Shown one piece after another: positions 37,522 to 63,944 of a stretch of DNA of 64,000 nucleotides; positions within the stretch are counted from its first letter, which is position 1, and each line of letters begins with the position of its first letter. This DNA comes from a virus, in IMG/VR virus record IMGVR_UViG_3300044712_000792, positions 1 to 64,000 of that record. One strand, written 5' to 3'. The notes below the pieces were generated by a model that saw only the letters and a list, made by a program, of their open reading frames with translations, did no database searches and had not been told where the DNA came from. Both the position numbers and the translations under genes were made by a program.

Positions 37522-38592
37522 TTATCCGTAAGTGATGATTTCTGTCATAATATCTACCTTACCTGCTGTTGCCTCTGTAAATGTTAAGGTAAAGTATGTG
37601 ACATAGTTTGTCAATGTATAATTAGCTTCTGGAACTACATCACTATTTGCATCCCAAACAACCAAATGCTGTGTTGTGGTCGGTGCATAAGCTATAGTCC
37701 AAGTAGTAGATGCCGTATCTTGTTCATGAGTATATAATTTTTCAATAGTTACAAGTTCTCTTAATTCTTCGGTTGTGGTGGTAGAACTAGCTACTGCTTC
37801 CGAAGCTTTTTTTTGCAAGAAAACAGAAGTAATAGACTTTTCCACTCTTGAGGGTAGGGTTGGTAAATAAGCCTCAAGCGTAAAAGTTGCAGAAGCTCTA
37901 ACCATTCTTTCTGTATCTGCTGCTGCTATTAGACTTGTTTGTGCTATTGTATTATCAAAATGGCATCGTATCACTTCGGCAAAATCTATCTGTGGGGCGT
38001 AAATAGAAAAGTAAAAATCTGGCTGAAATGGAAGGAGAAATTGTTCAGTAAGCATTTGCAATTCTTGCTGATATTTAGTCCAAAAATTAACTGTATATTT
38101 CAAGTCCATCTGTTTATGGACACCTTTACTCTCAACAAATTTCTTCGTTAGGTCATCAAACCACACCCTTCTTTTATGGGAAATAGCCAAAGTCGGACCA
38201 CGATTTACAACCCTAGTGCTGTCAGTTCTTACAAAAGAGATAGCAGGTAGATTTATTCTACCCATCATATTGCCTACGCCTTCCTTCTGATTGGCTGAAA
38301 ATAACCTTTCTGGAACTCCGTAGGTGATATTTGTAACTGGTATTACATCTTGATTAGCGGCATCTAATATCTCAAAACCCTTAAACCACTTCTTGAGCAT
38401 ACCATCATATACCTCTAAAAAGCCACTATAAGCGTTTTTAACACCCCTTGAGTTAAGCCCTAGTATGAAGTCATAGGTAGTCTGTTCTTCGCTTCCTTTC
38501 CATTGATAAGAAGCGTCATAGCCTTCACCCTCATTTTTGATACCTACAGTATAAGATTGAAAGATACCTGGGTTATTAATGCTATCTACCAT
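37522..38592 (-). CDS. Tail sheath terminator/stabiliser (T4 gp15-like) with C-terminal extension
   Basis: ITYGVPE, LPAISFVR, YTVNFWTKYQQELQMLTEQFLLPFQP. Confidence 0.7.
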   Translation of the reverse strand: MVDSINNPGIFQSYTVGIKNEGEGYDASYQWKGSEEQTTYDFILGLNSRGVKNAYSGFLEVYDGMLKKWFKGFEILDAANQDVIPVTNITYGVPERLFSANQKEGVGNMMGRINLPAISFVRTDSTRVVNRGPTLAISHKRRVWFDDLTKKFVESKGVHKQMDLKYTVNFWTKYQQELQMLTEQFLLPFQPDFYFSIYAPQIDFAEVIRCHFDNTIAQTSLIAAADTERMVRASATFTLEAYLPTLPSRVEKSITSVFLQKKASEAVASSTTTTEELRELVTIEKLYTHEQDTASTTWTIAYAPTTTQHLVVWDANSDVVPEANYTLTNYVTYFTLTFTEATAGKVDIMTEIITYG

Positions 38593-39045
38593 TTATTCTC
38601 CATAATGTTTTGCCCCTAATGCCTTTAGTTTTTCAATAATATCTTTTACATTTCTACCTGATTTTTCCAATGTTTCTGCCATATCTAAAGGTGTTTTTTT
38701 ATAACTTTTGTAACCCCGTGGAGAAAGCCAACTATAAGACACCAAAAAGTTTACATCAAGTTTTGTACTTTTAGCATATGCTAAAAATAGTCTTACCATA
38801 TTAAGTCTTTTATTAAATAAAGCAAGGGAAAATGGGGTATGTTGTCCTATTCTAGTATTAACATCAATCTTCAGTTCTTTAGCACAAGACAAAACAAGTT
38901 TAAGCATATCATATCTATAATACTCTACCATATAATATAAATTATCATAAGCATTTATATTAGCACCCTGTTCAAGAAGCTGAACAAATGTAAAAAAGTT
39001 ATTATGTACTACAGAACTTCTTAATTCAAAATTAAGGTCAGCCAC
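38593..39045 (-). CDS. Ankyrin-repeat protein
   Basis: LLEQGANIN, HTPFSLA, KTPLDMA, LKALGAK. Confidence 0.85.
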   Translation of the reverse strand: MADLNFELRSSVVHNNFFTFVQLLEQGANINAYDNLYYMVEYYRYDMLKLVLSCAKELKIDVNTRIGQHTPFSLALFNKRLNMVRLFLAYAKSTKLDVNFLVSYSWLSPRGYKSYKKTPLDMAETLEKSGRNVKDIIEKLKALGAKHYGE

Positions 39046-40161
39046 TTAACTCTCCCTTACCGTTACAATACCTGTTCTAGTTTCTATTTCCAAATTAGGT
39101 AATGTTACGGTCAGTTTCCATCTATACTTCCTAGCTTTTAGATATGCATGATGTGTTATAGCATCAGTAGACTCAAATACATAGACATAATCTGGCTGCG
39201 TATCCGTGTATGTTAATGCGGGTTCTGTAGCTGGAGGTACTATTTCAACTATACCTATTAAACCACTAGTAATTGTATTACCAGTTGAAGTTATTCTGTA
39301 TATTCTGTACTCTATAGCATCGCTAACCGCTGTCCAGGTCAAGGTAACATAATCATTATCTCCTAGAGGCGGAGCAGATGGGATTTGAACTTCTTGGGAT
39401 ATGATTAGTCGTCTAGCTGTAACAGCAACAACGATGTAAGTATATGTATATGCAGTAGATGTAGCCACTTTGGTTAATACAGCAGTAGGGGCTTCAAAGG
39501 CACATTTAGGTGTTGTTCCTCTAGTTACCCCTGTAAAATCTCCGTGATGTTTAATACAATAACAACCAGAGAACATTGTGTCATAAAAAAGTTCTAATAT
39601 CTGAAACTTTGAGGAACTAAAGATATAATCCTCAAATGTTATGGTTAAAATGAATGTGTCTTCCCAATAAAACGGCTTGAATTGCTTCCATGTAGTAATC
39701 AAATCTGTTGTCATTAAAAGAGTTACACCATTATTCAAATCTCCAATCCATTCAAATTCTGGTTCAATTTTAGCTGTCTTCTCTTGTAATCCGCAGGTTA
39801 AATACTTTCCCTTTAGATTAATCTTCTTCTTTTCTTCGGTAAGAACTAGTGTATTTTCTCTTGGGTTTGTTTGAACTTGTTTGTTAATTTTAGTGTTCTT
39901 GGCAGTTACCAATACGCTTACCCAAAATACTATCGGAACTGCCTCTAAATTAAGGTCAAATACAATGGAACTAGCCAATATGGTTAGGTCTTCTATTTCA
40001 GCTTTACCAACAACTCTATCATTTACAAAGAATAGAACATCTACCGAATTGCTAGATACTTCTTGTTTTGCATATAGTTCTTCTAAAGTTGTAATAGTAT
40101 CTTGTTCTACCGACCACTCTAATTTTAAGTCTTTATTGTTTATTGATTTTTCTACAATCAT
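39046..40161 (-). CDS. Putative virion structural protein with Fn3/Ig-like domain
   Basis: YTYIVVAV...VTLTWTAVSDAIEYRIYR; tail-module context. Confidence 0.6.
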   Translation of the reverse strand: MIVEKSINNKDLKLEWSVEQDTITTLEELYAKQEVSSNSVDVLFFVNDRVVGKAEIEDLTILASSIVFDLNLEAVPIVFWVSVLVTAKNTKINKQVQTNPRENTLVLTEEKKKINLKGKYLTCGLQEKTAKIEPEFEWIGDLNNGVTLLMTTDLITTWKQFKPFYWEDTFILTITFEDYIFSSSKFQILELFYDTMFSGCYCIKHHGDFTGVTRGTTPKCAFEAPTAVLTKVATSTAYTYTYIVVAVTARRLIISQEVQIPSAPPLGDNDYVTLTWTAVSDAIEYRIYRITSTGNTITSGLIGIVEIVPPATEPALTYTDTQPDYVYVFESTDAITHHAYLKARKYRWKLTVTLPNLEIETRTGIVTVRES

Positions 40162-40688
40162 TCAGTAACCTTATGTTTTTCCATAAATCGTATAATTTTT
40201 TCTTTATCTGGCCCTTTAGCAAACCCAAAACTAGTCAGATTCCAATTACATGCTCTATAAGGGTCCGCCCCTAGTTTTATTAGAAATTCCACATTATCAA
40301 AATCACCCATATCACAAGCACACATTAAAGGTGTGATGCCATTTTTATTACCATAATCAGCACTACAACCACCATCAATTAATTTTTGCAATAACACCCT
40401 ATCAGTAATTCTAGCCCACATAGCAAAATGTATTATAGTATTCCTATAATTTTTTGTTTTAGCCTTTAAATTTAGCTTTAGGTCTTTTGCATTATTAAGC
40501 ATAAACCTAGCCATATCAATTCTATTTTCGTTGAGCATATGGGCTAACAAAGGAATTTCATCATCGCTATATCTATTAGTAACATAAGTGTTAGCAGAAA
40601 CACCATTATCTAGTAATTCATATAATTGTCTTAAGCTATTTTTCTCAACAGCTTCCGTTAGTTTTTCTATTACATTTTCTATTGGCAT
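40158..40688 (-). CDS. Ankyrin-repeat protein
   Basis: LLDNGVSAN, NTIIHFA, NGITPLMCAC...VEFLIKLGADP. Confidence 0.9.
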   Translation of the reverse strand: MPIENVIEKLTEAVEKNSLRQLYELLDNGVSANTYVTNRYSDDEIPLLAHMLNENRIDMARFMLNNAKDLKLNLKAKTKNYRNTIIHFAMWARITDRVLLQKLIDGGCSADYGNKNGITPLMCACDMGDFDNVEFLIKLGADPYRACNWNLTSFGFAKGPDKEKIIRFMEKHKVTE

Positions 40689-40689
40689 T

Positions 40690-41094
40690 TTACATCACAT
40701 TATTGCTTGAGAAATTGAATAAGAACTGTTGGTCGGTTGAGGTTTCAGTATTCCTTACATTCATAACAATTATCATTTTTACATTGTAATCTTCTGTATC
40801 ACCAACTGGACTGAATGTTATGTACAAAGAATCCACAGCTAAATATGACAGATATTTTTTCATTTGTAAGGTTATTATATTACGAATTTCTTGGATTACT
40901 AGGTCTGTTGATGGGGCAAACAAGTAACTTCTTATGCCTATACCGAACTCTGGGTATCCTACTCTTTCACCTGGAACAGTCATAAGTAGCTGATAAATAT
41001 TGACATACATACCTTCAACAGAACTTCTATCTGTGCCTTGAAAATATCCATCGGTCATAGATTTTTTGAAAGGTATTAAAATGCTATTTGGCAC
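40690..41094 (-). CDS. Baseplate wedge/sheath initiator (gp25/gpW-like)
   Basis: LLMTVPGERVGYPEFGIGIRSYLF. Confidence 0.9.
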   Translation of the reverse strand: MPNSILIPFKKSMTDGYFQGTDRSSVEGMYVNIYQLLMTVPGERVGYPEFGIGIRSYLFAPSTDLVIQEIRNIITLQMKKYLSYLAVDSLYITFSPVGDTEDYNVKMIIVMNVRNTETSTDQQFLFNFSSNNVM

Positions 41095-41097
41095 TTA

Positions 41098-41322
41098 TCA
41101 CTCCTTTTGTTTATATTCTTTACGGTCATTCAATATAGCAGAACCTTCATATTGTATCAATAATGTTATTTCAATAATCCCTGTTTTGTTGTCCCTTGTT
41201 GCTGAAATTGTTTTAACATCATTTACCGAACCCCACCTTCCTTGACAATTTTCCAAAATTTCGTTAATCTCTTCCGTTACATCGCTTTCGCTACCTTTGA
41301 ATGTCTTGATTAAAACCTTCAT
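41098..41322 (-). CDS. Hypothetical protein
   Basis: AAGGAG SD on minus strand. Confidence 0.55.
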   Translation of the reverse strand: MKVLIKTFKGSESDVTEEINEILENCQGRWGSVNDVKTISATRDNKTGIIEITLLIQYEGSAILNDRKEYKQKE

Positions 41323-41451
41323 AAGTCTCCTTCACGAGTTTTGGTGTCAATTTCTTGAACCGGGCTTTACTTTATATTCTTTTCCGAATTAGAATAGAAT
41401 ATAAGATAAATGGTTATTTACCTTGAAATATAAGAAAAAAAGGGGTCAATT

Positions 41452-44400
41452 ATGGTCAAATTAATAGAGGCAGACATTCCTGTTAGAATATTGCTTTCTG
41501 AAGCTAAATTGAGAGATGTATATGAACAATATAAGCTAACAGATGAAGAAAAACTGTATTTTAACCAAATCATTGAAAAACAAAGACATTTACAAAAATA
41601 TATGCCACACATAATAAAATTCATCAAAGAGGATGGGTATGCCCCAAGTGTAGTCTTTGAGATATTCAATCTGTTTGAAAAATACAAAGATGTTGTCCCA
41701 CATAAAGACTTTATGGATGCTAAATATTATTCTACGCTTTTAGACTTTAGACAAGCAATAAAAGTAGCACAAAGAGAGAAAAAAGCAGCTGTAATTGGTG
41801 GAGTAAACCCTAGTGTTGTTGAACGAATTGAGAATGGATTAAAACAGTTTTCAACAACAACATTTCTAGTTTCTGAAACAGACGAATATTGGGTTATTTA
41901 TATTGGGTCGTTTCCAGCTAGTGTTTATTTCTGTGAAGAACCTAGAAAACAGACATCAAAACTCGGTGGACCTCCTTGGTGTATTGGAGCCCAAGAAGGC
42001 AATTACAATAACTACCATCGTGATTACAAATCGTGTTTTTTGATTCAACCCAAAGATGGATATATGAAAAGCACCATTTTCTATGCTAGTGCTACCGCTC
42101 TTGAAAGAACAGATATTATGAACACAATGCATTATGATGAAGGTCCCTGGCATGGTGTCCTTAAGGTAATCAGAGAAAATGAAATGGTGAAAAAGATTTG
42201 GGAGGTTAGAAGGGCGCAGCCTAGTCTTGCTATAAAAGATGTATCATTTTTTGTTATATCTGGTATTCCTGTTGGGACAGATTCTATGAAAACAATTGAA
42301 ACGCTAATAGAAAAAGAAGGAATAACTTTAACAAAAGATGAATGGGAGGAAATAAAGAAAAGTCCACAAACAGTTCTATCAAGAATATCATCTTGTCCTA
42401 GTAATAAAGGGTTTTTTTATTGGATAGCTTATGCTGGTATTTGGCCAGAGTATTATGACATTTATTGTAAGGGTAGTGCTAAATTGTATGATTCAAAACT
42501 ACCATTCAAATTGAAAGTAGACTTGGTGAAAGCAGGGTCAAATTATGGAACACATTTAATGTATTCGTTTGGGACATTAATGAGCAAACTTGGTGACATT
42601 AAAGTTGATGATTTTCTTGACGAAGCAACCGTTGCCACACTATTCAACGAGTACAAGAAAGACAATAATAACACTTTAGAACTATTGTCACAACTTAATT
42701 TTGATACAAAGGAAGAAAAACTTATTGATTTCATAAGATTCGCTGTTGCCCACCCAAAACTTCTTCGTTCCCCAGCTACAGCTAATAGTATATTTCATGA
42801 TGCTAATGCCCATCTTGCCCATTTTACAGCAAATTTAATGCTTCAAACACTACAACTGTTAGAAAAAAAGGTTAAAATATCCGATATACTAAAAAAATTA
42901 GTTCCAGAAACAGATTATGAAACAAAAATTATAGCATATAATTCTATGGGTTTACCTGCTTGGGAGATGACACAAGAAAATTTAGTAAACGGTAGCATAG
43001 AGGCTGTCGCAGAGATAGAAAAGAATCGTGCAACCCTAAAGAAAGGTTATAGTATAGAGTATTTGAAATTGTATGTGTTTACATATCCAGAGTTACTCCC
43101 AATACTATTATCGGAACACAATTATGCTCAAACATTTAAGAATTTCTACAATATTACCGCAGAAACTAGAGATAAATTTGTTAAATTTTATGTTTCTATA
43201 CCTCAATCTTATAGAGATTTGTTTGAGAAAATACTTACCGATATTGGGTACACTACTGATACGGCATTAGTAGAATCGTTTATGGAAGCTTATAAAGCAG
43301 ATGCCTCATTTTTGGATGAAAAACAGATATACACAATCTTTAAACACGCTATTAACAACTATGGTAATGGTTATTTTTCTTGGATTAACGGCCCTTTACA
43401 ACAGTTATTTACAGACCCAGCAGTTAAAAACCCTATGAGTAACGCTATAAATTTTTACCCTAGAATATTTAGACCTATTGAAGGAACAGCTAACTTCAAA
43501 AAAATAATACAACAATATAATAGATTTCAAGATGCTGTGCGTTATGCTTCAAGTCATGATGTTAGACCAAGTTCAAGAACTTGGGGTAATAATTTAACTT
43601 TTGAAATGTTGCAAATGTATACAGACCAGCAACTTACAAATATGTATATGCTAACAAATTATCTTTCATTTAGCCCAGACAACGAAACTACTCAAGAAGT
43701 CATATATATGTTTTCTAATGAAGTAGTTGCTGCATTTGTAGCATCTAACCCAAAGATAAAAGATATTAATAAAGTAGGTCTAATATTTTTCAATTTAAAA
43801 AAACTATTGAAAACAGAAGAAAAAATGTTAGAATACTTAAAATCAAATGTGGTTAATGATGTTATAGCTGATTGTGATTCTCTTGAAGCTCTGGAAACAC
43901 TTGGTAAGTTTGGTGCGTTCCTTATAGCTGCAAATAAAGAAAAGTTTGAAAAATTCCTAGCCGAAACAAAAGAGTGGAGTTCTGGGCTTATAAAGTATCT
44001 TTTAGCTTTTCAATATGGCACTTTAGATAATGGAGTAATAGATGCAATTTTAAGGCATAAATCGGTTTTTGAAGAAGCGTTCAAAACTAGTACTTTTAAG
44101 GATTTCCCAAATTCGTTAGTCCAACAAGCCTATAATATGTTTTCTTATAATGTTTATCATGGTGGTGGTCTGTCTAATGTTGAAACTATTAAGCTATTCC
44201 TTTCTATGGATTTTAAGAATTTAATAGAACCATTAGACCTAGCAAAGCAAAACAATTTATGGAATTGGATGGCGTATGCTGTTGGTAGGACTTCTTCATA
44301 TAGCAGTAGTATGCCTACTGTTGGTTCTCCTGCTGCGGTAACATCAATAACTAAATTACAAGAAATGGCATTCAAATTACCTAAACTAATAGCATTAGCA

Positions 44401-45645
44401 AAGCAATTAACCCGAATGGAAACATTAAAACGTCAAGATGGTGGGGTTAAAAGACTTTATACCAATATTGATTACATTTTAGCTTTTAGCGAAACCTTGG
44501 AGATAGGGAAAATCCTTTTTGATGGTGTATATGATACCCCTACTATAGATAAAAAATTTGCTAAAGTGGCGAGCCTTAACTTAAAACACCCCGGATATGC
44601 TATGTTACATATGCTACACGGAGTAATAAAGGCAGAAGTACTAAAAAGTTTAGATGAATATATGCCAGCGATTATGACAATACTTAAATGGGATTATGCA
44701 AAACTACAAAATTTGTTGGGTAAAATAAACATATCTGATATAGCAGAAGCTTCACAGAACAATACACTAGAAGAACTCTTGTCAAACCAAGAATACATAC
44801 ACATAACCTTACCAAATTGCTTGTATGATTTACTCCAATTTGCGGAAGATGGCGATTATCATTACGGAATAGCTATAAATGCTATACCAGAGGTTGGTAT
44901 TGCAACCTATTCAAACACAGAAGTATCGTTGGTGGCTTTACATAAAACTATTAAATCAAAATCTATTGTAGTAATTTTAAAAAATCATAGGTTTGTTTTA
45001 CCTAATAGGAGTAAGGGTAGAAAATCTAGTGATGTTAATATTGTTATTGAAAAATTTAAGGCTAGTATTTCTGATGTAAAGTTTTTTGATAAGTTTAATG
45101 ACGATAAGTATAGTGGTCGCATTGAATTAATCAAACATTTAGTTCCAGATAATAGTCAAGAAATAGATAAAGTAGTATCTCATATTTTATCTACTTGGGA
45201 TAATTCAATGAAAGGACTTGGCAGGAAAATACAGGTATATGTTATGTTTTATGGGGATTCTAGTGGTATTACGGTTAATAAGTTATTGGTAGATTTTATA
45301 GAGGCGAATCTTAATGCAGGGTTTTTGGGTAGCCTTCTAAATGCATATAATTACTATATGCCAACCATTTCAAAAGAGAAAAAAACAAGGTTCTGGTATA
45401 TAGCAGGGTTGGCTTGTGTGTTTGGTGTTAAAAACAATATTGATGTCGCAAAAATAAGTGGATGGACACCAGTCCTTTCACAATTAAAAATGGCTAGTTT
45501 GACATTTGATTTAAAGGATACAATTAAACAGATATTCAATTTGCGAGTTCCGTTACTAACTTCAATAGAGAAGTTAGAAATATCATCAAGTAACAAGCAT
45601 GCATTAAAAACTCTTATGAATTTAGAAGGTATAGAACAATGGTAA
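41452..45645 (+). CDS. Giant hypothetical protein, paralog 1 of 3 (N-terminal WCIG domain)
   Basis: 1397 aa; colinear similarity to the next two ORFs. Confidence 0.85.
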   Translation: MVKLIEADIPVRILLSEAKLRDVYEQYKLTDEEKLYFNQIIEKQRHLQKYMPHIIKFIKEDGYAPSVVFEIFNLFEKYKDVVPHKDFMDAKYYSTLLDFRQAIKVAQREKKAAVIGGVNPSVVERIENGLKQFSTTTFLVSETDEYWVIYIGSFPASVYFCEEPRKQTSKLGGPPWCIGAQEGNYNNYHRDYKSCFLIQPKDGYMKSTIFYASATALERTDIMNTMHYDEGPWHGVLKVIRENEMVKKIWEVRRAQPSLAIKDVSFFVISGIPVGTDSMKTIETLIEKEGITLTKDEWEEIKKSPQTVLSRISSCPSNKGFFYWIAYAGIWPEYYDIYCKGSAKLYDSKLPFKLKVDLVKAGSNYGTHLMYSFGTLMSKLGDIKVDDFLDEATVATLFNEYKKDNNNTLELLSQLNFDTKEEKLIDFIRFAVAHPKLLRSPATANSIFHDANAHLAHFTANLMLQTLQLLEKKVKISDILKKLVPETDYETKIIAYNSMGLPAWEMTQENLVNGSIEAVAEIEKNRATLKKGYSIEYLKLYVFTYPELLPILLSEHNYAQTFKNFYNITAETRDKFVKFYVSIPQSYRDLFEKILTDIGYTTDTALVESFMEAYKADASFLDEKQIYTIFKHAINNYGNGYFSWINGPLQQLFTDPAVKNPMSNAINFYPRIFRPIEGTANFKKIIQQYNRFQDAVRYASSHDVRPSSRTWGNNLTFEMLQMYTDQQLTNMYMLTNYLSFSPDNETTQEVIYMFSNEVVAAFVASNPKIKDINKVGLIFFNLKKLLKTEEKMLEYLKSNVVNDVIADCDSLEALETLGKFGAFLIAANKEKFEKFLAETKEWSSGLIKYLLAFQYGTLDNGVIDAILRHKSVFEEAFKTSTFKDFPNSLVQQAYNMFSYNVYHGGGLSNVETIKLFLSMDFKNLIEPLDLAKQNNLWNWMAYAVGRTSSYSSSMPTVGSPAAVTSITKLQEMAFKLPKLIALAKQLTRMETLKRQDGGVKRLYTNIDYILAFSETLEIGKILFDGVYDTPTIDKKFAKVASLNLKHPGYAMLHMLHGVIKAEVLKSLDEYMPAIMTILKWDYAKLQNLLGKINISDIAEASQNNTLEELLSNQEYIHITLPNCLYDLLQFAEDGDYHYGIAINAIPEVGIATYSNTEVSLVALHKTIKSKSIVVILKNHRFVLPNRSKGRKSSDVNIVIEKFKASISDVKFFDKFNDDKYSGRIELIKHLVPDNSQEIDKVVSHILSTWDNSMKGLGRKIQVYVMFYGDSSGITVNKLLVDFIEANLNAGFLGSLLNAYNYYMPTISKEKKTRFWYIAGLACVFGVKNNIDVAKISGWTPVLSQLKMASLTFDLKDTIKQIFNLRVPLLTSIEKLEISSSNKHALKTLMNLEGIEQW

Positions 45646-48600
45646 AAAAACTTATTACCGAAGCTAGATTAAGGGATGTTTATACCAAATACAACTTGAC
45701 TGACGATGAAAAAACCTATTTTAATAAGGTCATTGAGAAGCAAAAATTTATGCAGAAGTATATGCCACAAATTGTCAAATTCGTCAAACAAGATGGGGAA
45801 GAAGCAGATTTTGTTCTTGATGTATTTAATACATTTGAAAACTACAAGGATAAGGTTGAACATAAGGACTTTTTAGACGAGAAGGCTTACCCAGATTTGT
45901 ATTCGTATAGGGCTGCTGTTAAAAACTTTATGACCACAAAACGAGTAGCATCAAATCCTATCAGAGAAAATGTTGAAAATGGGCTAAACCAATTCAGCAC
46001 AACAACTTACCTTGTTAAAGAAACAGATAATTTTTGGCTTATTTATATAGGTTCTTTTCCAGCTAGTGTGTATTTCTGTACAGAACCAAGAAAAGTAACG
46101 GGTCGTCTAGGAGGCTCACCTTGGTGTATTGGTGCTAATGAAAGTAACTATAATGGTTATCACGATGGTGGCAATTTGTGCTTTATTGTAATGTTTAAAG
46201 ATACATACGATAAAAGCACCATTTATTATGCAAATAGAAGTGGGTTTACTAGAACAGACATTATGAACCACGCATACAATACTGATGCTGGTACTATTTG
46301 TGATGGTGTTTATCAGATTATAAAAGCAGACCCTATGGTAAATAAACTGTGGGATGCTAGAAATAAAGTGGGTAACTCAATACCAATAAGTTTTGTGTCT
46401 TCTTTTGTTTTAGCTGGAATGGAAGTATCTTCAGATAAGAATTTGTTATTAGATGCTGTTTTGAAGAAGCACAATATTCAACTTAATGGGGAAGAATTAG
46501 ACCTATTAAAAAGAAGGTTTAGTATCTCTGCTACAACTGTTTTGAATTATATGAGTGAAGCCCCTACTAAAGAAGATTATTGGCATTGGGTTAGAGTGTC
46601 AGCAACAATGCAAGGCCAGGGCCTACTAGTAAGTCGTAATTTGAGTAAGCTATTGTATAATTCAAAAGTTCCATTTTCAGTTAAGAAAAAAATAGCAAGA
46701 GCTCCAGATGGTGGTGCCCCTGATATGTGGTATAGATTTTCATATCTTATATACCCCTTAAATATAGATGACCTTGATTCTTTGTTCCCTGGTGATTTGC
46801 TATCAGAGTTTATTGAGGCTACTACGCCAACTTTAATGAGAAATGAGATTTTTAATTGGTTTTATGCGAGTGCTGGACTTGAATTTTCAGAGTACAAAAA
46901 AGAAGAACTTATTGGATTACTTGAATTTATTAAAACAAATCCTTCCTTCGTTTCTGCAATTCTTGGTAGTATCAGTAAATTTAGCAAATTTACTGTTGGG
47001 TTATTGCTACAAGCGTTTAATCTTTTATTGAAAAAAGAAGCAAATGTTGATACTATGTTAGATAAGCTAGTTCCTTCTACAGAATATGAAACTAAAATAT
47101 TAGAGATATTGAAGATAGGTTCGTTAAGCACTTGGAAACTAACAAAAGAACAAGTAATGGCCGCCGATTTGGAAGTATTAAAACAAGTAAATGAAAAAGC
47201 AAATATAGATATAATTGTACAATATGGACTATCTCAATCTGCAATTAGATATCTTACACTTAAATACCCTAAAATTATAACAATACTAAAAGAAGCACAT
47301 AAATTTCTTTACAACACAGGTTTTATTGGTGGACAGGGGGAAGAAGAATTTATCACAGGATTATTAAAATTCCCACCAGAACAAATACGGGAGTTTAACA
47401 AAGCATTTGAATCAACAGGCTATTCTATGGATAATGGAATTGCTTATTGTTTGGGTTGTTTATTCAAATCTGATATAAGCTTTTTATCCCCAGAGTTACA
47501 AATTAGTTGTGTGCGCTGGACAATAAATAGCTATGGTAATGAATATTTTTCTTTCAGTAGAGGCTTGTTAAGGAATGTGCCATTTTTTCCAAAACAGAAA
47601 GAGGTTACACTACTCCCTAACATATTTGACCAACCTATTATGATGTTCAAACCAGCAGAAGGAACTGCCAATTTTAAAAAGATTCTAGCCAACTATGAGA
47701 AATTTCTTAATGCAATTTTTTATGTTCAATCTAGTGGTTTGACATTAAACTATCAGACAGAATTTTTTAGGTCTATGTCATATGAAACCCTCTCAATGTA
47801 TTCAGAATACCAATTAACAAATCTATTTTTGTTATCACCTTATCTATCAAATCAACAAGAAAATGATGAGACCAAAGATGTAGCTTTAAAATACTCTAGA
47901 AGATTAATACTAGCATTCTTGAAAAGCCTACCACGAATCTCAAATATAAACCATGTTGGACCTTTACTTAACAAATTAAAGGGTTTGTTGGGCACAGAAG
48001 AAAAAATGATTGAGTTTATGAGTAGCCATTCTATTAGCACTAATATGATTCACTTGAAAACTATAGAGCAAATGGAAAAACTATCTAGATATGGTATGTT
48101 TAATTTAACAGCTAGTTATGAGAATATGGAAGCCTTTTTTTCAGAAACAGAAGATATATATGTTGAAGTGGCTAGATATATGAAATTGTCAGGCATTTCA
48201 GAACTAAACAATTCGGTTATTACAGAAGCATTAAAAACTATTGGATTGTTCAGAACTGAAGTTAAAAAAAGCAACTTTTTGAAGCTATCTCCGATAAACT
48301 TTAATGCCGTAAACGCTTTTTGGTTAAATATGGTGTATAAAACAAATTCTAATTATATTTGGCTAACTGAACATATTAGCTTATTTTTCAGTATGGATTT
48401 TGAACGCCTAGACCGTATGGCACCAGAATTTGTTAAACCAAACGCTTTTGCTGGTTGGCTACAAAGTTTCTATAATGGTGGGAATCTTTGGAATGCTGGG
48501 GACGAGAAGGCAAAATCTGCAATAGAAAATGCCTTAAATTATTTAGAATCCGTAATGCCAATCAGAGAGATGTTTAAAAAGTTGGGTGTGACAAATTATT

Positions 48601-56375: not shown

Positions 56376-57328
56376 TATATTATACTCAAACTTCCTGTAA
56401 GTGTAGCCATACCAGTAATTTTAATGGTTGGGGCAGTTATGGTTAATAGAGGGGTTGTCATTGTTATTGAAGTGGTGGCGGTGTCAGTAATTGTAGTGCC
56501 TTCAATAGAGGTCATACAAGATTCATTTCCTACCATAGTTTGAACCATACCTTGAACTGTTGAATTTTGAGTTCCTGTGATAGAACAATCTTGCGTGGCT
56601 ATGGCAGTAATATCTTCTTTAGCTGTCATAAATATGTTCTTTGCCATTAATGTTAAAGTCTCTTTACACATAATAGTAATATTGTCATTTTCGGCATCCA
56701 TAAGGATTGTATTACCATGTTTATCAAGTGCTTGGATTCTACAACCCTTTTGCCCTTCGTAAATAGTGATTTCATTGCCTTTAGCACCACAACAAGTAAT
56801 AAGTTCTTCGTCTTTCTGGTCAGAGATTATAACCTTACGATTACCTGGGGTTCTTAACTCTATTTGATAATGGTCTTTTTCTTCTCTGCATTGTATTATA
56901 TGACCGTTTGGAGTCTGCCAACCCCAAGCATTAGGAACTACACCATCTCCTTCATATCTGTCATAAGCCTCAATAGATTTAGTATCTTGCTGATACCACC
57001 CACCAATTATTACAGCATTGTCATTGGCATTTACCGAAGGTTCAAATAAAACGAATACTTTTGCACCAGTAGGATAAGGTAGGTAAGAACCATACTTTTT
57101 ACCGCTCTCCTGACCTCCACCAAAGGCATTCATTGTCCAAGCCCATACCGATTGCTTGTCTGGAGCTATAGATGGCGTTAAACCCTCAATAAGCACCTTA
57201 ACACGCCCAAACTTGTCTGGGTCTACATTGTCAACTATTACACCACGATACAGAACTCCTCTTTTGGGGAATTCAGCATCTTGGTTAATCCATTTAAAAT
57301 ATTTTGCTTGTAATGCATCAACAGGCAT
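56375..57328 (-). CDS. Baseplate central spike (gp5/gpV/VgrG OB fold + beta-helix)
   Basis: YRGVIVDNVDPDKFGRVKV, P.GA.VFVLFE, IIGG, TPNGH, repetitive Thr/Ile beta C-terminus. Confidence 0.9.
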   Translation of the reverse strand: MPVDALQAKYFKWINQDAEFPKRGVLYRGVIVDNVDPDKFGRVKVLIEGLTPSIAPDKQSVWAWTMNAFGGGQESGKKYGSYLPYPTGAKVFVLFEPSVNANDNAVIIGGWYQQDTKSIEAYDRYEGDGVVPNAWGWQTPNGHIIQCREEKDHYQIELRTPGNRKVIISDQKDEELITCCGAKGNEITIYEGQKGCRIQALDKHGNTILMDAENDNITIMCKETLTLMAKNIFMTAKEDITAIATQDCSITGTQNSTVQGMVQTMVGNESCMTSIEGTTITDTATTSITMTTPLLTITAPTIKITGMATLTGSLSII

Positions 57329-57349
57329 TATTTATCCTTTCAAATTATA

Positions 57350-57817
57350 TTACTTTGCCCCTAATTCAAGTAATTTTGCCTTAATTTTTTCAAGAGGTGC
57401 TATATCACTATGTTGAGTATTTTTGATGTTATTCAATACTCTATTTACTCGCCCTAAAATAGTCTCAAACGATTCTTTTGATATATGGTTTATGTTTATA
57501 TTTATGTTATGTTCTTTTGCCATATTTAACAAAGTAAGAGTATTCTTATGTTTGTTCCAAGATACAGATAAATATAAAACACTATTACCAGCTTTAGTTA
57601 CATAAGCCAAGTTGGTCTTTAAAGTATCTGCGTTTCTTATAAGGATATCTGCCATTTTATCCTGAATACCAGGTTGGTAACTCATACATACTAGGAGTGG
57701 GGGATAATCATTGACCGTTCGTTTGTAGTTTACATTAACCCCTTCTTCAATACAGCAAATAAATTCGTAGAAATTACCATCGTTAATTGCTTTTAGAAAT
57801 CTCTCTTCTAGTTTCAT
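57350..57817 (-). CDS. Ankyrin-repeat protein
   Basis: IEEGVNVN, PPLL, GNSVLYLS, LLELGAK. Confidence 0.8.
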   Translation of the reverse strand: MKLEERFLKAINDGNFYEFICCIEEGVNVNYKRTVNDYPPLLVCMSYQPGIQDKMADILIRNADTLKTNLAYVTKAGNSVLYLSVSWNKHKNTLTLLNMAKEHNINININHISKESFETILGRVNRVLNNIKNTQHSDIAPLEKIKAKLLELGAK

Positions 57818-58290
57818 TTTTTCAACTCTTTTTTTCTTTTAGCACCGAGTTCTACCAATTTCTCCCTAACTTGTTCAATATCATGTTCTCTCCACCCTGC
57901 TGGTAAATCGTGATACATAATATCTAAAGGAGTTGCATTCACATCATTGCTTACATTATTAACATTTAATCCTATTCTTTTAGCGTTATTTAACAAGTAC
58001 AAAGTGAATTCCAAGTTAGCTTTGTACAACGACCAACTTAATACGGTATTGCCTCCAAGAGTTCTTTGGTTGACAGCTAACTTTAATTTGTCAGCACTAT
58101 CTATCAATAACATAGCAAATTTGGTTCTGTATCTGTCTATACAAGAAACAAGTATTGGCTGGCCAAACTGTAAACCATATTCATTAACATTTATACCACT
58201 TTCAACACACATAATAAACTTATATATGTTATTATTAATAATGGCTTCGTGTAAATCGTATAAGTTATACTTATACTCCTTTATTTTCAC
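57814..58290 (-). CDS. Ankyrin-repeat protein
   Basis: VESGINVN, GNTVLSWS, ATPLDI, LVELGAK. Confidence 0.85.
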   Translation of the reverse strand: MKIKEYKYNLYDLHEAIINNNIYKFIMCVESGINVNEYGLQFGQPILVSCIDRYRTKFAMLLIDSADKLKLAVNQRTLGGNTVLSWSLYKANLEFTLYLLNNAKRIGLNVNNVSNDVNATPLDIMYHDLPAGWREHDIEQVREKLVELGAKRKKELKK

Positions 58291-61200
58291 TTATATCTCC
58301 AACACAAATACTTGTTGCATAACTTGATATTCTCCTTGGTATTTCGGGAATAAGACCACCTTTATTATGTTCTCTCCTGCTATTAAATAAGAGATAAGGT
58401 CTATTGTGGTGGACATACTAGTATGTAGCTTACTCAATGAACCAAATGTACCACTAGCAAATAGGTCTACATCATTAACAAAAACTGAAATATTCTTGAA
58501 AATACCTTGTTCTATTGAGTTCACATATAGAACTTCTCCTAATATAGAGAATACACCAAGACATTGTTTCGGTTCATTAATTGTAACAGGAATCCTAGTC
58601 AATCCTCCAAGTTTTCCATACCACTTTCTATTATAGAAGCCGTCCTTATCTACAAACAAGCAATCTCCTTCTGCTGGAACTTTTAAGTAAATGCTTCCAG
58701 AGAAAGAAGTTGTGCCGTAGTTCTTTTGTAGATTTACCATATTCAAATATGAGTTCTTAATCATAGTATATGAATCGGAAGTATCTACAAAATATCCATT
58801 CTTCCATTTGTTCATACCCCAATAATCTTCAATATCGCAATAATAGACAGCAGACTGATTGCTTCTAAATGACAATACGCCATCATAGACATTGTTAAAT
58901 TCTATTGTAGTATTTGGTTCAACATCAATATATGAACCTGAAATTTCTATTACAGACCCATTATACATATTTGCAGATGAAAGAACAACACTATCCTTAA
59001 GTATCTCACCAGTTACGATATAACTAGATGTATCTACTGTAGCTGTTATTACAAATGTTTGGGTTGTTCCAATACTGGTGATAGTTTTCGTAAGAGCTAA
59101 AGGTGTTATAGTTGTAGGGCTAGGACTTATTGTATCATAGCCTGCGGTTGCTGTTCCAGTTCCAGATATTCTAATTAAATTACCAGAAACACTAGGAATT
59201 CCAACTACTGTGAAAAATGCTACTGTTCCACTTAATGTAGTCGTAAGAGTTCCTGTTGCGGCTGTTGTTCCTATTGTGTAAGTATCCCCTGCTGTGGCTT
59301 CCATAGTCCCTGTTGTCGTTATAACATAGCTACTTGTTGTTGCTGGATATGTGAACTTATAGCCATTCTTAACAGCCTTAAAAGTATAAGCCCCAGGATT
59401 TAATGTGAAATTGGCTAATCCGCTAGTATTTGTCCTAAAAACACCAACAACATCATCTGTATTATAATGTGATAACTCTGAAACCAAATCAACATTTTCT
59501 ATTGGATTGGCACTAGCGTCAACAACAGAGATTACACCAGAAGCTGCACTAGTCAAAACATTAGCTGTTATAGTTACTCCTTTATCTGTATTTGTATTGA
59601 CTGTTATAGGTGCGGGCTGTGGAGTTCCATCTATGATAAAGCTATAATAATTCGTTTGTGTTGGGTAGACAAAACATTGTAAGGTATACACATTAGCATC
59701 TTCCACATCAATACTGAAATTACCCGTGGCTGTGGTAGTATCTATTTTAACATATCTATTAAAATCAACTGTGCCAGAATCATTGGTTTTGCTTATGATA
59801 TGGACATAGGCGTTTTTACCTATACCAAGACCATTAACAACACCAGATAGAGTTACTATGTTTGATGCTGAAGAAGGTGCTGTAAAGCTGTAAGTAGTAT
59901 TAGCACCATTAACATATACATCCATAGAAACCGGATAAGCACTAACATCTGTTACGAGTTTGTATAGCCCGTTTTCTGCTGTAATAGTATATGTTCCATT
60001 TCTTGATGTTAAGCTAAAATTGTTTGCCTCATAAGTAGTAATACCTGTTGCTTGTGATGTATCGTAATAGCTTGATTTATAAGACTTTGTAACAGTATAA
60101 TCTACCGAACTTATTGTGGCACTTGAACCTTCCCAAAGACTATCACCCCAAGCATCATTATCTATTTCTGGTGCTACAAATAATACTGTCTTACCATCAC
60201 AAGGTTTATAATCCAAAATCCTATGTGTTGGTGAAAGTCTGTCTGATTGTGATAATTGGAAATAAGGTATGTAAGTAGTATCATAACTTGATGCTGCTGT
60301 TGAATGAACTCCTAGAATTCCTGTTTTAAAATCAACTTCAGTAACGGTAGAAGAATCTCCGGCGGCATTACAAGTTGCGGTTATAACCATAGTTTCGTTT
60401 TTAGGTATCATTGGAACTACTGTTGTTCCTGTTGACATAATCCTATAAAATTCAGCACCACTATTATTTGGAGTTCTGAAAAACATTACTTTATCCCAAT
60501 CGGCATTTGCAGTTACAGTCAATGTAGCAGAGAAATTACTAGCAGCAGTAATAGTTGCTGATTGTATTAGTTCTGATATACCACCACTTGCATACATAAC
60601 CATATACCCAAATCTATAACTACCAGCCACTATGTTTCCACCAGTAGCAGTTGTAACTTGTAATGTAGCTGTGGGTTTTATTGGAACATAGAAATTGCTA
60701 TCCAATGTTAAGTTTGAAATTGTGGTATCTAGAACATCTCCATATTTAGTAAATACTCCAATCATTGGCATATTGGGTGCTATAAACACATCTTTAGCCC
60801 AAGGATAGGTCAATGCCAAATTCTTTCCATATATCTTGTAGTCATTATAATCCAATTCAAGGACAATATCATCAAAATAGAATGGTCTAAAAGTTGCTAT
60901 CGTTGCAGTTCCATCTATTGTTTCAGCAGTATTATATGTTAGTATAGTTTCAGTCCCAGAAGGTGTAGCACTTGTTAAATCAATTAATTGCTTTCTTGAA
61001 TCTTGTAAATAATAATTTATTATGTCTATATCAAGTGGTTGGTCTATTGTAGCTTTGTTGTATGGGGTTGTGTCGTCTAAAGTTAATGTGACTGGTGTTG
61101 TTAAAGATACTTCATAATTCGCATTTACATTAGAGTCTGGTTCTGGTAAACATTCTATTAATTCACTTGTTTCGCTTCTCCACTTCTCCTTATAATCAAA

Positions 61201-62328
61201 ATCAACTTCAAGCAATCTTAATGTAGATTTTAGGCTTGATACTCTTCCTTTTAGTTTAAGTAATGGGAATAAATATCTAGCTTGCCAACGCCATATTTCA
61301 GAGTTTTGAGTTAAAGTACTCCAACCCAAATTTCTTAACAAGTAAGGAAGCCAACCATCAGGACATTCTAAATAATCAATTAGTGCTAATAAATCCCCAT
61401 CTGTATATACGCCTTGATAGAAAGTTGTTACGCTATCCCAAAAGCCATTTAGGTGTTGGTAGTTATCTGTTTCTTTATAGATTGAAGGGATATACCTAAA
61501 CATTTGTTTCTTGAACTTATAGTATTTCCCAAAATCATCATTATATGAAATTGTCTGTAAAGGCATTTCTGTTTCACCAGAAGTAGTAAATGGTTCATAT
61601 GCTGGTGAATATGCGTAAACACTTACAGGACAACCAGTTTTCCAAGTGTGGTTAGTAAGGACATTTAATACTCCGCTTTGTGGCGAAGTAAATACAACAT
61701 CAAAAGTTGTAGTGTTATCAACAATCGTATATGTAGCAGACAATTCTTTACCATAGAAATCCGTTATAGTAAGACCGAAATATTGATTGTAGGCAAAGTC
61801 AATAGTCCAAGTTGCTTCTGCTGTGTTCTGCGTATGTTCGTGAATTGACACACTTGCAGAAGAAAAATATGTCATACTGTTATTAAGGAAGTCATAAGGA
61901 GGTGTGACATAAGTAGGGTAAATAACTTCAAGACTATATCTGCTAATCTTCTGAACCCTATAGATTTCAGCACCTATTAAGGCTACAAAATCAACAGGCA
62001 TATTTGAAGTATCTGTATAAATGATTGTGTCACCATTTACAAAGTCATCAGTCAAATAAGTAACTGGAACAAAATCTCCTTCTACTTTGAAATAACAGAT
62101 TGGGGCATATCCAGTTGTCCCTGGTATCATACGCCAAGCATATTCATCTGTGGCATCAAGTTCAGAGTATAGAACATACTTTTCTGAATAATACATCTCT
62201 TCATCATACATTTTTAAGTAACCTGTTGCTGGAAGCTTTTCTATATCTTCTTCATACAACACAGCCATAATGTTGCTTTTATGATAAACAAGAGTAAAAT
62301 TCTTTTGAGTAATTTCTATTGCATTCAT
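58291..62328 (-). CDS. Large baseplate wedge/tail protein (P2 gpI/T4 gp7-like core plus Ig-like domains)
   Basis: CPDGWLPYLLRNLGW...LKLKGRVSSLKSTLRLL; Thr-rich beta domains; VVDASANPIENV...TNTSGLA...GAYTFKAVKNGY. Confidence 0.75.
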   Translation of the reverse strand: MNAIEITQKNFTLVYHKSNIMAVLYEEDIEKLPATGYLKMYDEEMYYSEKYVLYSELDATDEYAWRMIPGTTGYAPICYFKVEGDFVPVTYLTDDFVNGDTIIYTDTSNMPVDFVALIGAEIYRVQKISRYSLEVIYPTYVTPPYDFLNNSMTYFSSASVSIHEHTQNTAEATWTIDFAYNQYFGLTITDFYGKELSATYTIVDNTTTFDVVFTSPQSGVLNVLTNHTWKTGCPVSVYAYSPAYEPFTTSGETEMPLQTISYNDDFGKYYKFKKQMFRYIPSIYKETDNYQHLNGFWDSVTTFYQGVYTDGDLLALIDYLECPDGWLPYLLRNLGWSTLTQNSEIWRWQARYLFPLLKLKGRVSSLKSTLRLLEVDFDYKEKWRSETSELIECLPEPDSNVNANYEVSLTTPVTLTLDDTTPYNKATIDQPLDIDIINYYLQDSRKQLIDLTSATPSGTETILTYNTAETIDGTATIATFRPFYFDDIVLELDYNDYKIYGKNLALTYPWAKDVFIAPNMPMIGVFTKYGDVLDTTISNLTLDSNFYVPIKPTATLQVTTATGGNIVAGSYRFGYMVMYASGGISELIQSATITAASNFSATLTVTANADWDKVMFFRTPNNSGAEFYRIMSTGTTVVPMIPKNETMVITATCNAAGDSSTVTEVDFKTGILGVHSTAASSYDTTYIPYFQLSQSDRLSPTHRILDYKPCDGKTVLFVAPEIDNDAWGDSLWEGSSATISSVDYTVTKSYKSSYYDTSQATGITTYEANNFSLTSRNGTYTITAENGLYKLVTDVSAYPVSMDVYVNGANTTYSFTAPSSASNIVTLSGVVNGLGIGKNAYVHIISKTNDSGTVDFNRYVKIDTTTATGNFSIDVEDANVYTLQCFVYPTQTNYYSFIIDGTPQPAPITVNTNTDKGVTITANVLTSAASGVISVVDASANPIENVDLVSELSHYNTDDVVGVFRTNTSGLANFTLNPGAYTFKAVKNGYKFTYPATTSSYVITTTGTMEATAGDTYTIGTTAATGTLTTTLSGTVAFFTVVGIPSVSGNLIRISGTGTATAGYDTISPSPTTITPLALTKTITSIGTTQTFVITATVDTSSYIVTGEILKDSVVLSSANMYNGSVIEISGSYIDVEPNTTIEFNNVYDGVLSFRSNQSAVYYCDIEDYWGMNKWKNGYFVDTSDSYTMIKNSYLNMVNLQKNYGTTSFSGSIYLKVPAEGDCLFVDKDGFYNRKWYGKLGGLTRIPVTINEPKQCLGVFSILGEVLYVNSIEQGIFKNISVFVNDVDLFASGTFGSLSKLHTSMSTTIDLISYLIAGENIIKVVLFPKYQGEYQVMQQVFVLEI

Positions 62329-62331
62329 CTA

Positions 62332-63399
62332 TTATTTCCTTGCTTTAAGTATTATATTACGTTGCCTTACTGATGCATGTTCTTTTCCGTATTTTGTGAG
62401 TTTAGCCCCATTGTTTATTAAAATGTCAATAAGGTTATCATAACCCTGATATATTACCCAATCCAACAATGTCTTACCTTCATATTTTGTATTTACATCG
62501 CCACCGTTTTTCAGCATTATTGAAAGTGCCCAACTATTTGTGTTTGTTATAACTAACTTTGTTAATAGTGGTTGACTACCAACCTTCATATTAGGTATGT
62601 CTACCCCATTGGTTTTAGCGGTTTTAACAATATTTTCAATAATAATAACAGGTAAATAATGCACAAGAAGATAATAAAATTCCATTGGAAATTTTGCCGC
62701 TAAAAATGCGTATACTTGTTCTGGCACTTCTTCCAAATTATCCACACCATCAACATAGTTATTTCTATCAAAGAATAAAACACTTTCATCGCTAGATATG
62801 TTAATAAAATACATAGTATAAAGGTCTTTTTTGTTTTGACATAGAATCAAATGTTCGTCTTGGTCTTGAACATATTCATAAAACCAATTTCTATCAACAT
62901 CAGGAATACCAATACAAAAAGCACTAACCTTTTTATCACTAGACTTTTTAGCATATTCCCTTTGTGGTTGCCCAAAAAAGATAGCAGCTTCAGGCTTAAA
63001 CAGGTCTATAAAGTAATAATCTTTTGTTTCAAATAACAACTTTGCTTCAGATGGAAATTTCTTAAGTCCAATACCCACAAAATCAGCAGGACTTTTAAAT
63101 TTGTTAAGCTGTTCAAGAATTTTTTGTTCTGCTGTCTTGAAATCAGAATACATTTTGTTGCTTATATCTTTAACTAAAAGCTTTGGGTTGTTCTTGTTTT
63201 GTTCCAATACTTTTATGAAATCAGTTATATTGTCCATTTCAATCTTTTGCGTTTTATGCCATTCAGCAATCCTAGCAAAATATTTATGCTGAATACCAGT
63301 TGGGTCCAGGTCCTCATATAAACTAATTTCTCTAGGAGTTAGGTTAAACTTCTTAATAGCATTTTTTACAATTGCGGATTCTACTATGTATTGTTTCAT
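62332..63399 (-). CDS. WCIG-domain (giant-protein N-terminus homolog) fused to ankyrin repeats
   Basis: HKYFARI..WHK, LFETKDYYFI, FCIG; C-terminal LKNGGDVN...GKTLLD...LINNGAK. Confidence 0.75.
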   Translation of the reverse strand: MKQYIVESAIVKNAIKKFNLTPREISLYEDLDPTGIQHKYFARIAEWHKTQKIEMDNITDFIKVLEQNKNNPKLLVKDISNKMYSDFKTAEQKILEQLNKFKSPADFVGIGLKKFPSEAKLLFETKDYYFIDLFKPEAAIFFGQPQREYAKKSSDKKVSAFCIGIPDVDRNWFYEYVQDQDEHLILCQNKKDLYTMYFINISSDESVLFFDRNNYVDGVDNLEEVPEQVYAFLAAKFPMEFYYLLVHYLPVIIIENIVKTAKTNGVDIPNMKVGSQPLLTKLVITNTNSWALSIMLKNGGDVNTKYEGKTLLDWVIYQGYDNLIDILINNGAKLTKYGKEHASVRQRNIILKARK

Positions 63400-63944
63400 T
63401 CGTCTACCCCTGCGTATTTATCTAACAAATTTCTAATTGGGAAGTAATTAATGTGATTTTTCAGCTCGTCCAAAGAATTATAATCCTCTTCTTCCACAAC
63501 AGCACCATTTTCAAGTAATAATCTAACCATCTCTACATTCATATTCCAAATAGCGAAAGTTAAAGGCCCTGAACCACTCCTATTTTTTACATTAACATTA
63601 CAACCTAAATTGAACATCATTTTTGCTATCTTAAAAATAAGATTCTCGTCATCTTTGTTGACCCCTCGTTTCCCAACCAACATACTTATAGATGTTGCAC
63701 CATCAAGAGATTTCTTGTTTACATTTAGCTTAAGCTCTTTGGCATTACGCAATAACAACATAACTATATCATAATACTGATGTTTTATACAAGTTGTAAG
63801 CAATGTGTTACCCCAATCATTCGGAAGTGAAAAATTTACATCTCCGCCATTTTCTATATAAGTAATTACATCCACTAAACAAGGAAGCCCCTGTAATATG
63901 TTTTTTTGTATTTTGTCTTGTAAAGCCTTATGTTCTTCTGTCAT
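63396..63944 (-). CDS. Ankyrin-repeat protein
   Basis: IENGGDVN, GNTLL, GCNVNVKNRSGSGPLTFAI...VRLLLENGA. Confidence 0.9.
   Translation of the reverse strand: MTEEHKALQDKIQKNILQGLPCLVDVITYIENGGDVNFSLPNDWGNTLLTTCIKHQYYDIVMLLLRNAKELKLNVNKKSLDGATSISMLVGKRGVNKDDENLIFKIAKMMFNLGCNVNVKNRSGSGPLTFAIWNMNVEMVRLLLENGAVVEEEDYNSLDELKNHINYFPIRNLLDKYAGVDE

Follow-up and report, generated by a model that had tools for sequence, protein, structure and literature searches.

Ankyrin repeats, which serve in general as modules for protein binding, are seldom found in tailed phages. The subject here is a family of small ankyrin genes in the tail and baseplate region of an uncultured phage, part of it within a 64,000 nucleotide (nt) stretch (the window) comprising bases 1–64000 of an 84,696 bp IMG/VR viral contig (IMGVR_UViG_3300044712_000792). 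The contig is rated ~41% complete, and all conclusions are drawn from that portion of the genome. Among described systems, the sponge-associated Ankyphages are alike in being tailed phages from metagenomes with a small ankyrin protein (ANKp). Jahn et al. (bioRxiv 10.1101/608950) reported 418 IMG/VR contigs with ankyrin genes, and found N-terminal signal peptides in two of the three Ankyphage ankyrin proteins, which were read as secreted auxiliary proteins. The present family differs in having 14 copies without signal peptides, in baseplate operons, and has no sequence relationship to ANKp beyond the repeat itself.

Small ankyrin proteins of the Bd3460/Tli/Imm-ank type reach the periplasm by export, where they protect against a secreted toxin. 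Each binds and controls an enzyme encoded beside it (Bd3460, PMC4686830; Tli, bioRxiv 10.1101/2023.03.28.534661; Imm-ank, PMC3482391). One pair of genes here likewise follows that of a papain-family peptidase, but most copies flank ordinary baseplate parts, without an export signal. In poxviruses and giant viruses, ankyrin arrays lie near the genome ends; as here, one gene has given rise to many paralogs in a single viral genome, tandem duplicates among them. Such expansions have been remarked upon for giant viruses (PMC12660748). In contrast, the family described here belongs to a tailed phage, its copies are old (18–43% identity) and sit at structural-operon junctions, and none carries an F-box, PRANC, or other partner domain. 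Tail-fiber assembly chaperone genes (T4 gp38, gp57A, and gp51; Mu and P2 Tfa) are small, lie directly beside fiber or baseplate genes, and are co-expressed with them; the likeness to the phage ankyrins is in position and size only, with no relationship in sequence or fold. A literature search found no description of an ankyrin family inside the tail or baseplate operons of a tailed phage.

The original prediction for this locus described five stand-alone ankyrin open reading frames (ORFs). All five are present, on the minus strand and exactly where it placed them (38593–39045, 40158–40688, 57350–57817, 57814–58290, and 63396–63944), but the count was too low: a profile built from these five genes, with an iterated search of all contig ORFs, finds 14 members of one ankyrin family. 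Thirteen stand alone, with lengths of 138–203 amino acids (aa); the fourteenth is a domain fused to an N-terminal module common to several giant proteins. The fused copy, the C-terminal third of 62332–63399, is also within the window, and a further one, 63941, runs off its end; the others (67032, 67570, 74671, 76672, 77176, 79215, and 79849) lie past it. All 14 are in the structural half of the contig, at 38.5–80.5 kb, with none among the 74 ORFs to the left of 37.5 kb and 14 among ~46 to the right (Fisher p 4e-7). Diverged copies of one binder scaffold make up about one in three genes of the structural half, and roughly a third of those in the baseplate region.

Not all members are recognizable as ankyrins by Pfam. 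Six score over the Ank_2 (PF12796) cutoff: 38593, 40158, 63396, 74671, 79215, and 79849; in the other eight the match is below it or absent. Of the five ORFs originally called ankyrins, three thus qualify directly (38593, 31.1 bits; 40158, 44.9 bits; 63396, 39.8 bits), while 57814 falls below the cutoff (21.4 bits) and 57350 has no match of its own. The last is assigned to the family because of its sister 57814 (BLAST E 4e-12; 95 by the Shimodaira–Hasegawa-like approximate likelihood ratio test, SH-aLRT) and the family profile, which with both sisters left out scores it at 59.6 bits, more than any of ~2,280 outside ankyrin domains. The ankyrin part of 62332–63399 is also below the cutoff (19.6–22.3 bits) and was found by jackhmmer at E 2e-11; 63941 was found by hmmsearch at E 2e-18.

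The most distinctive feature of the family is a lengthened linker, NAxxLKLxVN or NAKxxGLNVN, after helix 2 of repeats 2 and 3, in place of the GADVN of ankyrins in general. The five examples first noticed (CAKELKIDVN, NAKDLKLNL, NADTLKTNL, SADKLKLAVN, and NAKELKLNVN) are present letter for letter, as are three C-terminal ends of the form L..LGAK. Family sequences (2,206 residues) contain 6 copies of the strict linker motif, vs. one in the 341,476 residues of 150 outside ankyrin proteins, where it is ~900 times rarer per residue; the canonical linker occurs once in the family, and the outside set has 1,406 linkers of the form GAxxN. An AlphaFold2 model of 57814–58290, with the family alignment as input, has four helix pairs in an arrangement like that of a designed ankyrin repeat protein (DARPin), with a predicted local distance difference test score (pLDDT) of 92.8 and a predicted template modeling score (pTM) of 0.87. 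In this model the lengthened linkers appear as short extra helices, at residues 66–69 and 103–106. The top 50 Foldseek matches to it are all DARPins or ankyrins (TM-score ~0.65 over ~140 residues). Only this family member was modeled well; a model of the chimeric protein 62332–63399 was poor (pLDDT 57). The replacement of the canonical LLxxGADVN linker is a variant within the ankyrin fold, and no ground for exclusion from it. Four stacked helix-turn-helix repeats of ~33 residues, DARPin-sized, are common to the family, and framework residues are conserved across it, even if several members fall below Pfam cutoffs. The family profile matches 322 ankyrin sequences in the PDB, and 140,749 ankyrin-type proteins among 1.84 billion protein representatives; the latter search returned long multi-repeat ankyrins only, which confirms the superfamily but cannot name the nearest small relatives. 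Whatever their function, these 14 phage proteins constitute a natural set of stable binders of four repeats, set apart by the lengthened linker.

The original prediction took the shared linker as a sign of expansion within the phage, not of separate captures, and this reading is upheld by the common architecture and linker, by phylogeny, by the lack of close outside relatives, and by composition. Four of five tandem pairs are reciprocal best BLAST matches, at 35–43% identity (57350/57814, 63396/63941, 67032/67570, and 76672/77176). In the fifth, the best match of 79849 is 79215, but that of 79215 is 74671. In a maximum-likelihood tree with 45 outside ankyrin segments, all five pairs, 79215 and 79849 included, are sisters (SH-aLRT 83–99), and the 13 stand-alone members fall on one side of the outsiders. 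Only the chimera's ankyrin domain groups among these, on a long branch. A tree constrained to a single clade of 14 has a higher likelihood than that from a quick free search (p 0.75 by the approximately unbiased test), so that a single origin of all the repeats, proposed as a check on the expansion, is not rejected. In leave-pair-out tests, five core members beat every outside domain (~2,200–2,500), and two more are near the top; the divergent members are not separable from generic ankyrins by this score alone, but hhalign places the two most divergent pairs with the core, at probabilities of 89% and 95%.

Searches for outside relatives were negative at several levels. No close one was found by word-index search with the family profile (a weak test, since only three of the family's own members were recovered) or with its most canonical member, nor by a search for the linker pattern in 2.9 million viral contigs; the most canonical member also had no tblastn match in 50,697 deposited phage genomes. 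The sole match to the linker pattern in a set of one genome for each of 185,579 prokaryote species, an 833-aa ankyrin from a Gammaproteobacteria metagenome-assembled genome, has canonical linkers and is not a family member. Recent capture from a bacterial host or a eukaryote was considered and dropped: the ankyrin genes have the same GC content overall and at third codon positions as the surrounding module, and no outside protein is close to any of them. One ancestral four-repeat ankyrin gene has therefore very probably been duplicated many times within this phage lineage, and the low identities imply that the duplications are old. Copies were probably dispersed first to junctions between baseplate and tail genes, and then duplicated locally into sister pairs.

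The tandem pairs, as traces of repeated local duplication, might also suggest a neutral or selfish process, with the family a gene-accordion remnant without present function, or even a set of miscalled ORFs. This is scarcely credible for 14 reading frames that are all intact at 18–43% identity, with conserved framework residues, a confident structural model, and tight coupling to neighboring genes preserved.

The ankyrin genes are co-oriented with the baseplate genes around them, and mostly overlap their neighbors by 4 or 1 nt, or are separated from them by 0–3 nt, with recognizable Shine-Dalgarno sequences. The junctions singled out originally are as described (abutting at 38592/38593, 39045/39046, and 58290/58291, overlapping by 4 nt at 40158–40161), and 57814–57817 is a further 4-nt overlap. 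All genes in the following two stretches for which window coordinates are given are on the minus strand. In the first, a gp25-like baseplate wedge gene (40690–41094; phrog_43 and phrog_261, E 3e-9; PF04965, 26.4 bits, just under cutoff) is directly followed by ankyrin 40158 (40158–40688, 176 aa, linker NAKDLKLNL), which overlaps by 4 nt the gene for a 371-aa baseplate-peripheral protein flanked by ankyrins on both sides (39046–40161). Next comes ankyrin 38593 (38593–39045, 150 aa, GTG start, linker CAKELKIDVN, with the Shine-Dalgarno sequence AGGGAGAG upstream), with no intergenic bases on either side, and a gp15-like tail sheath stabilizer (37522–38592; PF16724, 33.9 bits; phrog_227) is the last gene of the operon.

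In the second stretch, a gp6-like wedge gene (contig 64357–67029) is followed by a tandem sister pair. The first sister, ~138 aa long, has its 3' end in the window (63941–64000; contig 63941–64357), and its ATG at contig 64357 shares 1 nt with the stop codon of the gp6-like gene; the second (63396–63944, 182 aa, linker NAKELKLNVN) is 43% identical to it (E 2.6e-19). TTG starts at 64405 and 68160 are probably spurious, with ATGs at 64357 and 68136, each overlapping the upstream stop codon by 1 nt, the likelier ones. The 355-aa chimera (62332–63399), with an N-terminal part of ~215 aa like that of the giant proteins, comes next, then a 1345-aa giant (58291–62328), and directly after it the second sister pair, made up of 57814 (57814–58290, 158 aa, GTG start, the most central family member) and 57350 (57350–57817, 155 aa). 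The latter is upstream of a gp5/VgrG-type baseplate hub gene with an oligonucleotide/oligosaccharide-binding (OB) fold (56375–57328; PF04717, 31.8 bits).

A promoter-like motif, AAGAATATAA, is found on the minus strand at 41372–41381, 58 nt upstream of the first gene of the operon containing ankyrins 40158 and 38593, and again at 41111–41120, 25 nt upstream of the gp25-like gene. There are five matches in the window vs. 0.75 expected, a number not reached in any of 100 shuffles. The motif lies 25–76 nt upstream of the first genes of every ankyrin-holding operon, and also precedes a triad of giant genes and ankyrin 79849. In the form (A)AGAATATAA, enriched ~7-fold, its copies are at 41111–41120 and 41372–41381 (minus strand) and 41395–41404, 24625–24634, 9488–9497, and 34277–34286 (plus strand) in the window, and at 74143 (minus), 74169 (plus), and 79792 (plus) in the rest of the contig. 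Most are 25–76 nt before the first gene of a same-strand operon, and both divergent intergenic regions hold one copy per direction. The phage probably uses this motif as a promoter of its own, with a loose likeness to the T4 late motif TATAAATA; the T4 motif itself is not enriched, and a scan for sigma-70 promoters and terminators gave chance-level results. By gene arrangement, the ankyrins are in the same transcription units as baseplate genes; this sharing, and the common motif, suggest that they would be expressed late, as was originally supposed.

The function preferred here, at a probability of about 0.4, is that of cognate binders for neighboring phage proteins. Each copy or sister pair would be a dedicated, DARPin-like binder of an adjoining structural protein, acting as an assembly chaperone, as a docking adaptor, or as a keeper, in which case the partner would stay inactive or soluble until its incorporation into the baseplate. 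Candidate partners are the gp6-like wedge, the hub, proteins with a conserved N-terminal and a lineage-specific C-terminal part, the giants, and the papain-like peptidase. A conserved N-part with a divergent C-part is typical of fiber and peripheral baseplate proteins, and two ankyrin neighbors, 58291 and 39046, are of this kind, with an N-part as in relatives and a C-part that differs. The N-terminal ~400 aa of 58291–62328 are kept in a 914-aa protein of related phages, which there follows gp6 (BLASTP 31.5% identity, residues 10–396, E 1e-50), and the N-part of 39046–40161 in a 594-aa protein of their baseplate operon (31% identity, residues 41–221, E 1e-27). Cognate binding is suggested by the ankyrins' position next to such proteins, by the fusion of one of them to the giants' module, and by the placement of one pair after the peptidase gene, and it has published precedents in Bd3460, Tli, and Imm-ank. 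If the partners are tail parts, the ankyrins would be assembly factors or adaptors of a new class, and would parallel in nature the engineered injection systems retargeted with DARPins.

All 14 ankyrins proved, in a hydropathy check, to lack both signal peptides and membrane segments; the proteins start directly with the N-cap helix. Together with the packed baseplate operons and the common motif, this leads to the expectation that they are in the cytoplasm, made alongside tail parts. It also disfavors secretion as effectors directed at a eukaryote, which would be released at lysis or secreted and alter the protist, plant, or animal host of the bacterium, on the model of Ankyphage ANKp or the eukaryotic association module of phage WO. 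In favor of this reading, ankyrin domains typically mediate interactions with eukaryotes, the phage was sampled from the rhizosphere, and four rhizosphere phage contigs with ankyrins were noted by Jahn et al. (10.1101/608950). Even so, such a role is very doubtful for proteins that lack the signal peptide found in two of the three Ankyphage ankyrin proteins, are small, without extra eukaryote-like domains, and are encoded within structural operons, not in an accessory module; moreover, the fragment showed no genes for an integrase or for lysogeny.

Two related IMG/VR contigs (23 kb and 42.6 kb, GC content ~43–44%, rated 7% and 14% complete by CheckV) allow the region to be compared with one that has no ankyrins. 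They encode six homologs, namely of the 801-aa protein, the hub, gp25, gp6, the N-part of 58291–62328, and the N-part of 39046–40161. The hub and gp6 proteins are 37–44% identical to those here, the hub being at 44%. In the relatives, the six are in one contiguous operon with spacers of 9–20 nt, in which family profile, Pfam, and hmmsearch scans found no ankyrin. As far as the data reach, the family is thus lineage-specific, as originally proposed. Gene order also differs. That of the relatives (L005:4755–17181) is 881-hub-348-gp25-gp6-914-594; here, gp6-giant-hub-801 form one block and gp25-39046-gp15 another, with three inverted giants between. Ankyrins are at the gp6|giant junction (two, plus the chimera), giant|hub (two), gp25|39046 (one), and 39046|gp15 (one). 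These include both junctions that depart from the relatives' order, and since ankyrins sit at both, recombination between dispersed paralogs could have rearranged the baseplate genes. Other sources of comparison were less useful: the 595-kb uncultured phage LR756511, source of the best deposited match to gp6 (26% identity), has no ankyrins and is too distant to inform, and neither a search for related loci with the gp15-like protein nor a scan of genome contigs with a gp6-like profile found anything.

Several points weigh against cognate binding. The relatives build a homologous baseplate without ankyrins, which must therefore be dispensable for its conserved core; on comparison with this single outgroup lineage, gain in the present lineage would be a simpler reading than loss in theirs. 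Ankyrin numbers do not correspond one-to-one with the large proteins, and there is none between the three tandem giants. No ankyrin acting as a phage tail chaperone or adaptor was found in a literature search, and no family member has a Pfam or PHROG match to known tail-fiber chaperone families.

An add-on without counterpart in relatives, in the form of a diversified binder panel on a fixed framework, is also what would be expected of arms-race genes. The ankyrins could conceivably be directed against the host, with the diversified copies forming a panel against variable targets: defense sensors of late structural proteins or, should the particle take up the ankyrins and eject them along with its DNA, host factors met at the next infection. 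In that case the phage would have a new anti-host arsenal that is expressed together with the tail or carried along with it. This is somewhat unlikely. Known anti-defense genes tend to be early genes of accessory regions, without translational coupling inside a baseplate operon, and no anti-defense homology turned up, although no search aimed at it (with PADLOC, for example) was made.

N-terminal sequences bear on the possibility of ejection. The three tandem giants (window 41452–53980), the chimera, and a 327-aa protein (73084–74067) have in common an N-terminal module of ~175–330 aa; that of the chimera matches giant 49850–53980 at E 1.5e-9 and 73084–74067 at E 2.5e-14. As a portable unit with varied C-termini, it would fit a targeting or anchoring role. 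All five module proteins, and also 39046–40161, have [LI]xE within the first 8 residues (MVKLIE, MVKKLITE, MVRKLITE, MKQYIVE, MEILLE, and MIVE), which resembles a T4 prohead-protease site. Glu is at residue 4 or 5 in 10 of 13 stand-alone ankyrins, vs. 16 of 100 other ORFs (MKIKE, MKLEE, MKKTE, MTDRE, MADRE, MIKE, MPIE, and others). Both the fusion of an ankyrin to such a module and the N-terminal Glu would be in keeping with anti-host proteins that are ejected. In T4, head-targeted proteins that are ejected (internal proteins, Alt) have a leader ending in L/I-x-E, which is cut by the prohead protease. [LI]xE is present within the first 12 residues of 7 of 13 ankyrins, vs. 15 of 100 other ORFs, but the supposed leaders would be only 4–5 residues long, some of the sites are inside the N-cap helix, and the paralogs are not independent samples. 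The Glu may have been favored as a helix N-cap, or it may belong to a very short leader that is processed. Neither head genes nor a prohead protease were found on the fragment.

Whether or not they are cognate binders in assembly, some copies may stay in the virion, and the fusion of one to the giants' N-module points that way. In an extended form of this idea, the ankyrins in general would be virion parts, DARPin-like modules on the baseplate held non-covalently or, for the chimera, via the N-module. They might be docking adaptors for the enlarged set of giant fibers, host-recognition heads, or proteins delivered at infection. This is unlikely, but it would mean that a tailed phage employs, as part of its infection apparatus, a diversified panel of repeat-protein binders. 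DARPins have reportedly been grafted onto a contractile injection system; to our knowledge, a repeat-protein binder panel in an infection apparatus has so far been achieved only by engineering. More broadly, the family suggests that large phages may build their own panels of binding proteins, as giant viruses of protists do.

The peptidase raises a special case of cognate binding. A papain-family cysteine peptidase gene (contig 68136–69059, minus strand; Peptidase_C1, 58.5 bits; also C39-like) lies within the baseplate operon, and the most divergent ankyrin pair, 67570/67032, comes directly after it, starting 1 nt inside its stop codon. The enzyme may be virion-associated and held in check by these ankyrins. 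In a general version, the family would consist of inhibitors or immunity proteins for phage enzymes or toxic cargo, with the peptidase and possible cargo in giant C-termini blocked in the producing cell until release, as modeled on Bd3460 and on Tli with Tle. The position of 57814/57350 directly after giant 58291–62328 could be read in the same way. As a description of the family this is quite improbable: there is no ankyrin after the three tandem giants, no toxin domain was detected in any giant, and most copies flank ordinary gp6-, gp25-, gp15-, and gp5-like baseplate parts, which need no immunity. Bd3460 and Tli, moreover, work in the periplasm, and the phage proteins are without signal peptides. 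Ankyrin proteins with self-protection or immunity functions have been published (PMC4686830; PMC3482391; 10.1101/2023.03.28.534661), and the targets of Bd3460 are exported peptidoglycan endopeptidases (PMC4686830).

As for the phage itself, DNA-metabolism genes on the plus strand fill 1–37.5 kb of the contig, among them those for a DnaB-type helicase, a DHH phosphoesterase, an RNA ligase, a 5'-3' exonuclease, an Mre11-like phosphoesterase, and a C5 methylase. Tail and baseplate genes occupy it from 37.5 kb onward, where several proteins of 800–1400 aa are unannotated; giant 58291–62328 has no Pfam, PHROG, or PDB match, and PDB sequence searches with 58291, 39046, and 53970 gave chance-level matches only. 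GC content is ~34%, and a megablast search of deposited phages with 24 kb of the window found no match. The closest public proteins are 37–44% identical. Because one of them is on a 405,869-bp contig, and because the two related contigs are rated only 7% and 14% complete, the phage is assigned to a jumbo or huge myovirus lineage.

Its DNA is present in rhizosphere metagenomes from two studies, and a second sequencing run contains, at low depth, this phage itself and not a diverged relative. In both runs, a 265-nt contig joins 47600 to 53297, with 33 other letters between, at a depth of ~2.7 vs. 10.7 for the main contig; this could represent either a minor variant from which ~5.7 kb of the giant triad is missing, or a path taken between paralogs in assembly. 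There is a single tRNA-Gln gene (anticodon TTG; window 34308–34381, plus strand), between the C5 methylase gene and one for a zinc-ribbon regulator-like protein. Two adjacent small genes past the window end (contig 77649–78146 and 78089–78691) have no family assignment and are paralogs of each other (24% identity, E 5e-9); they are a third expanded family of the same region.

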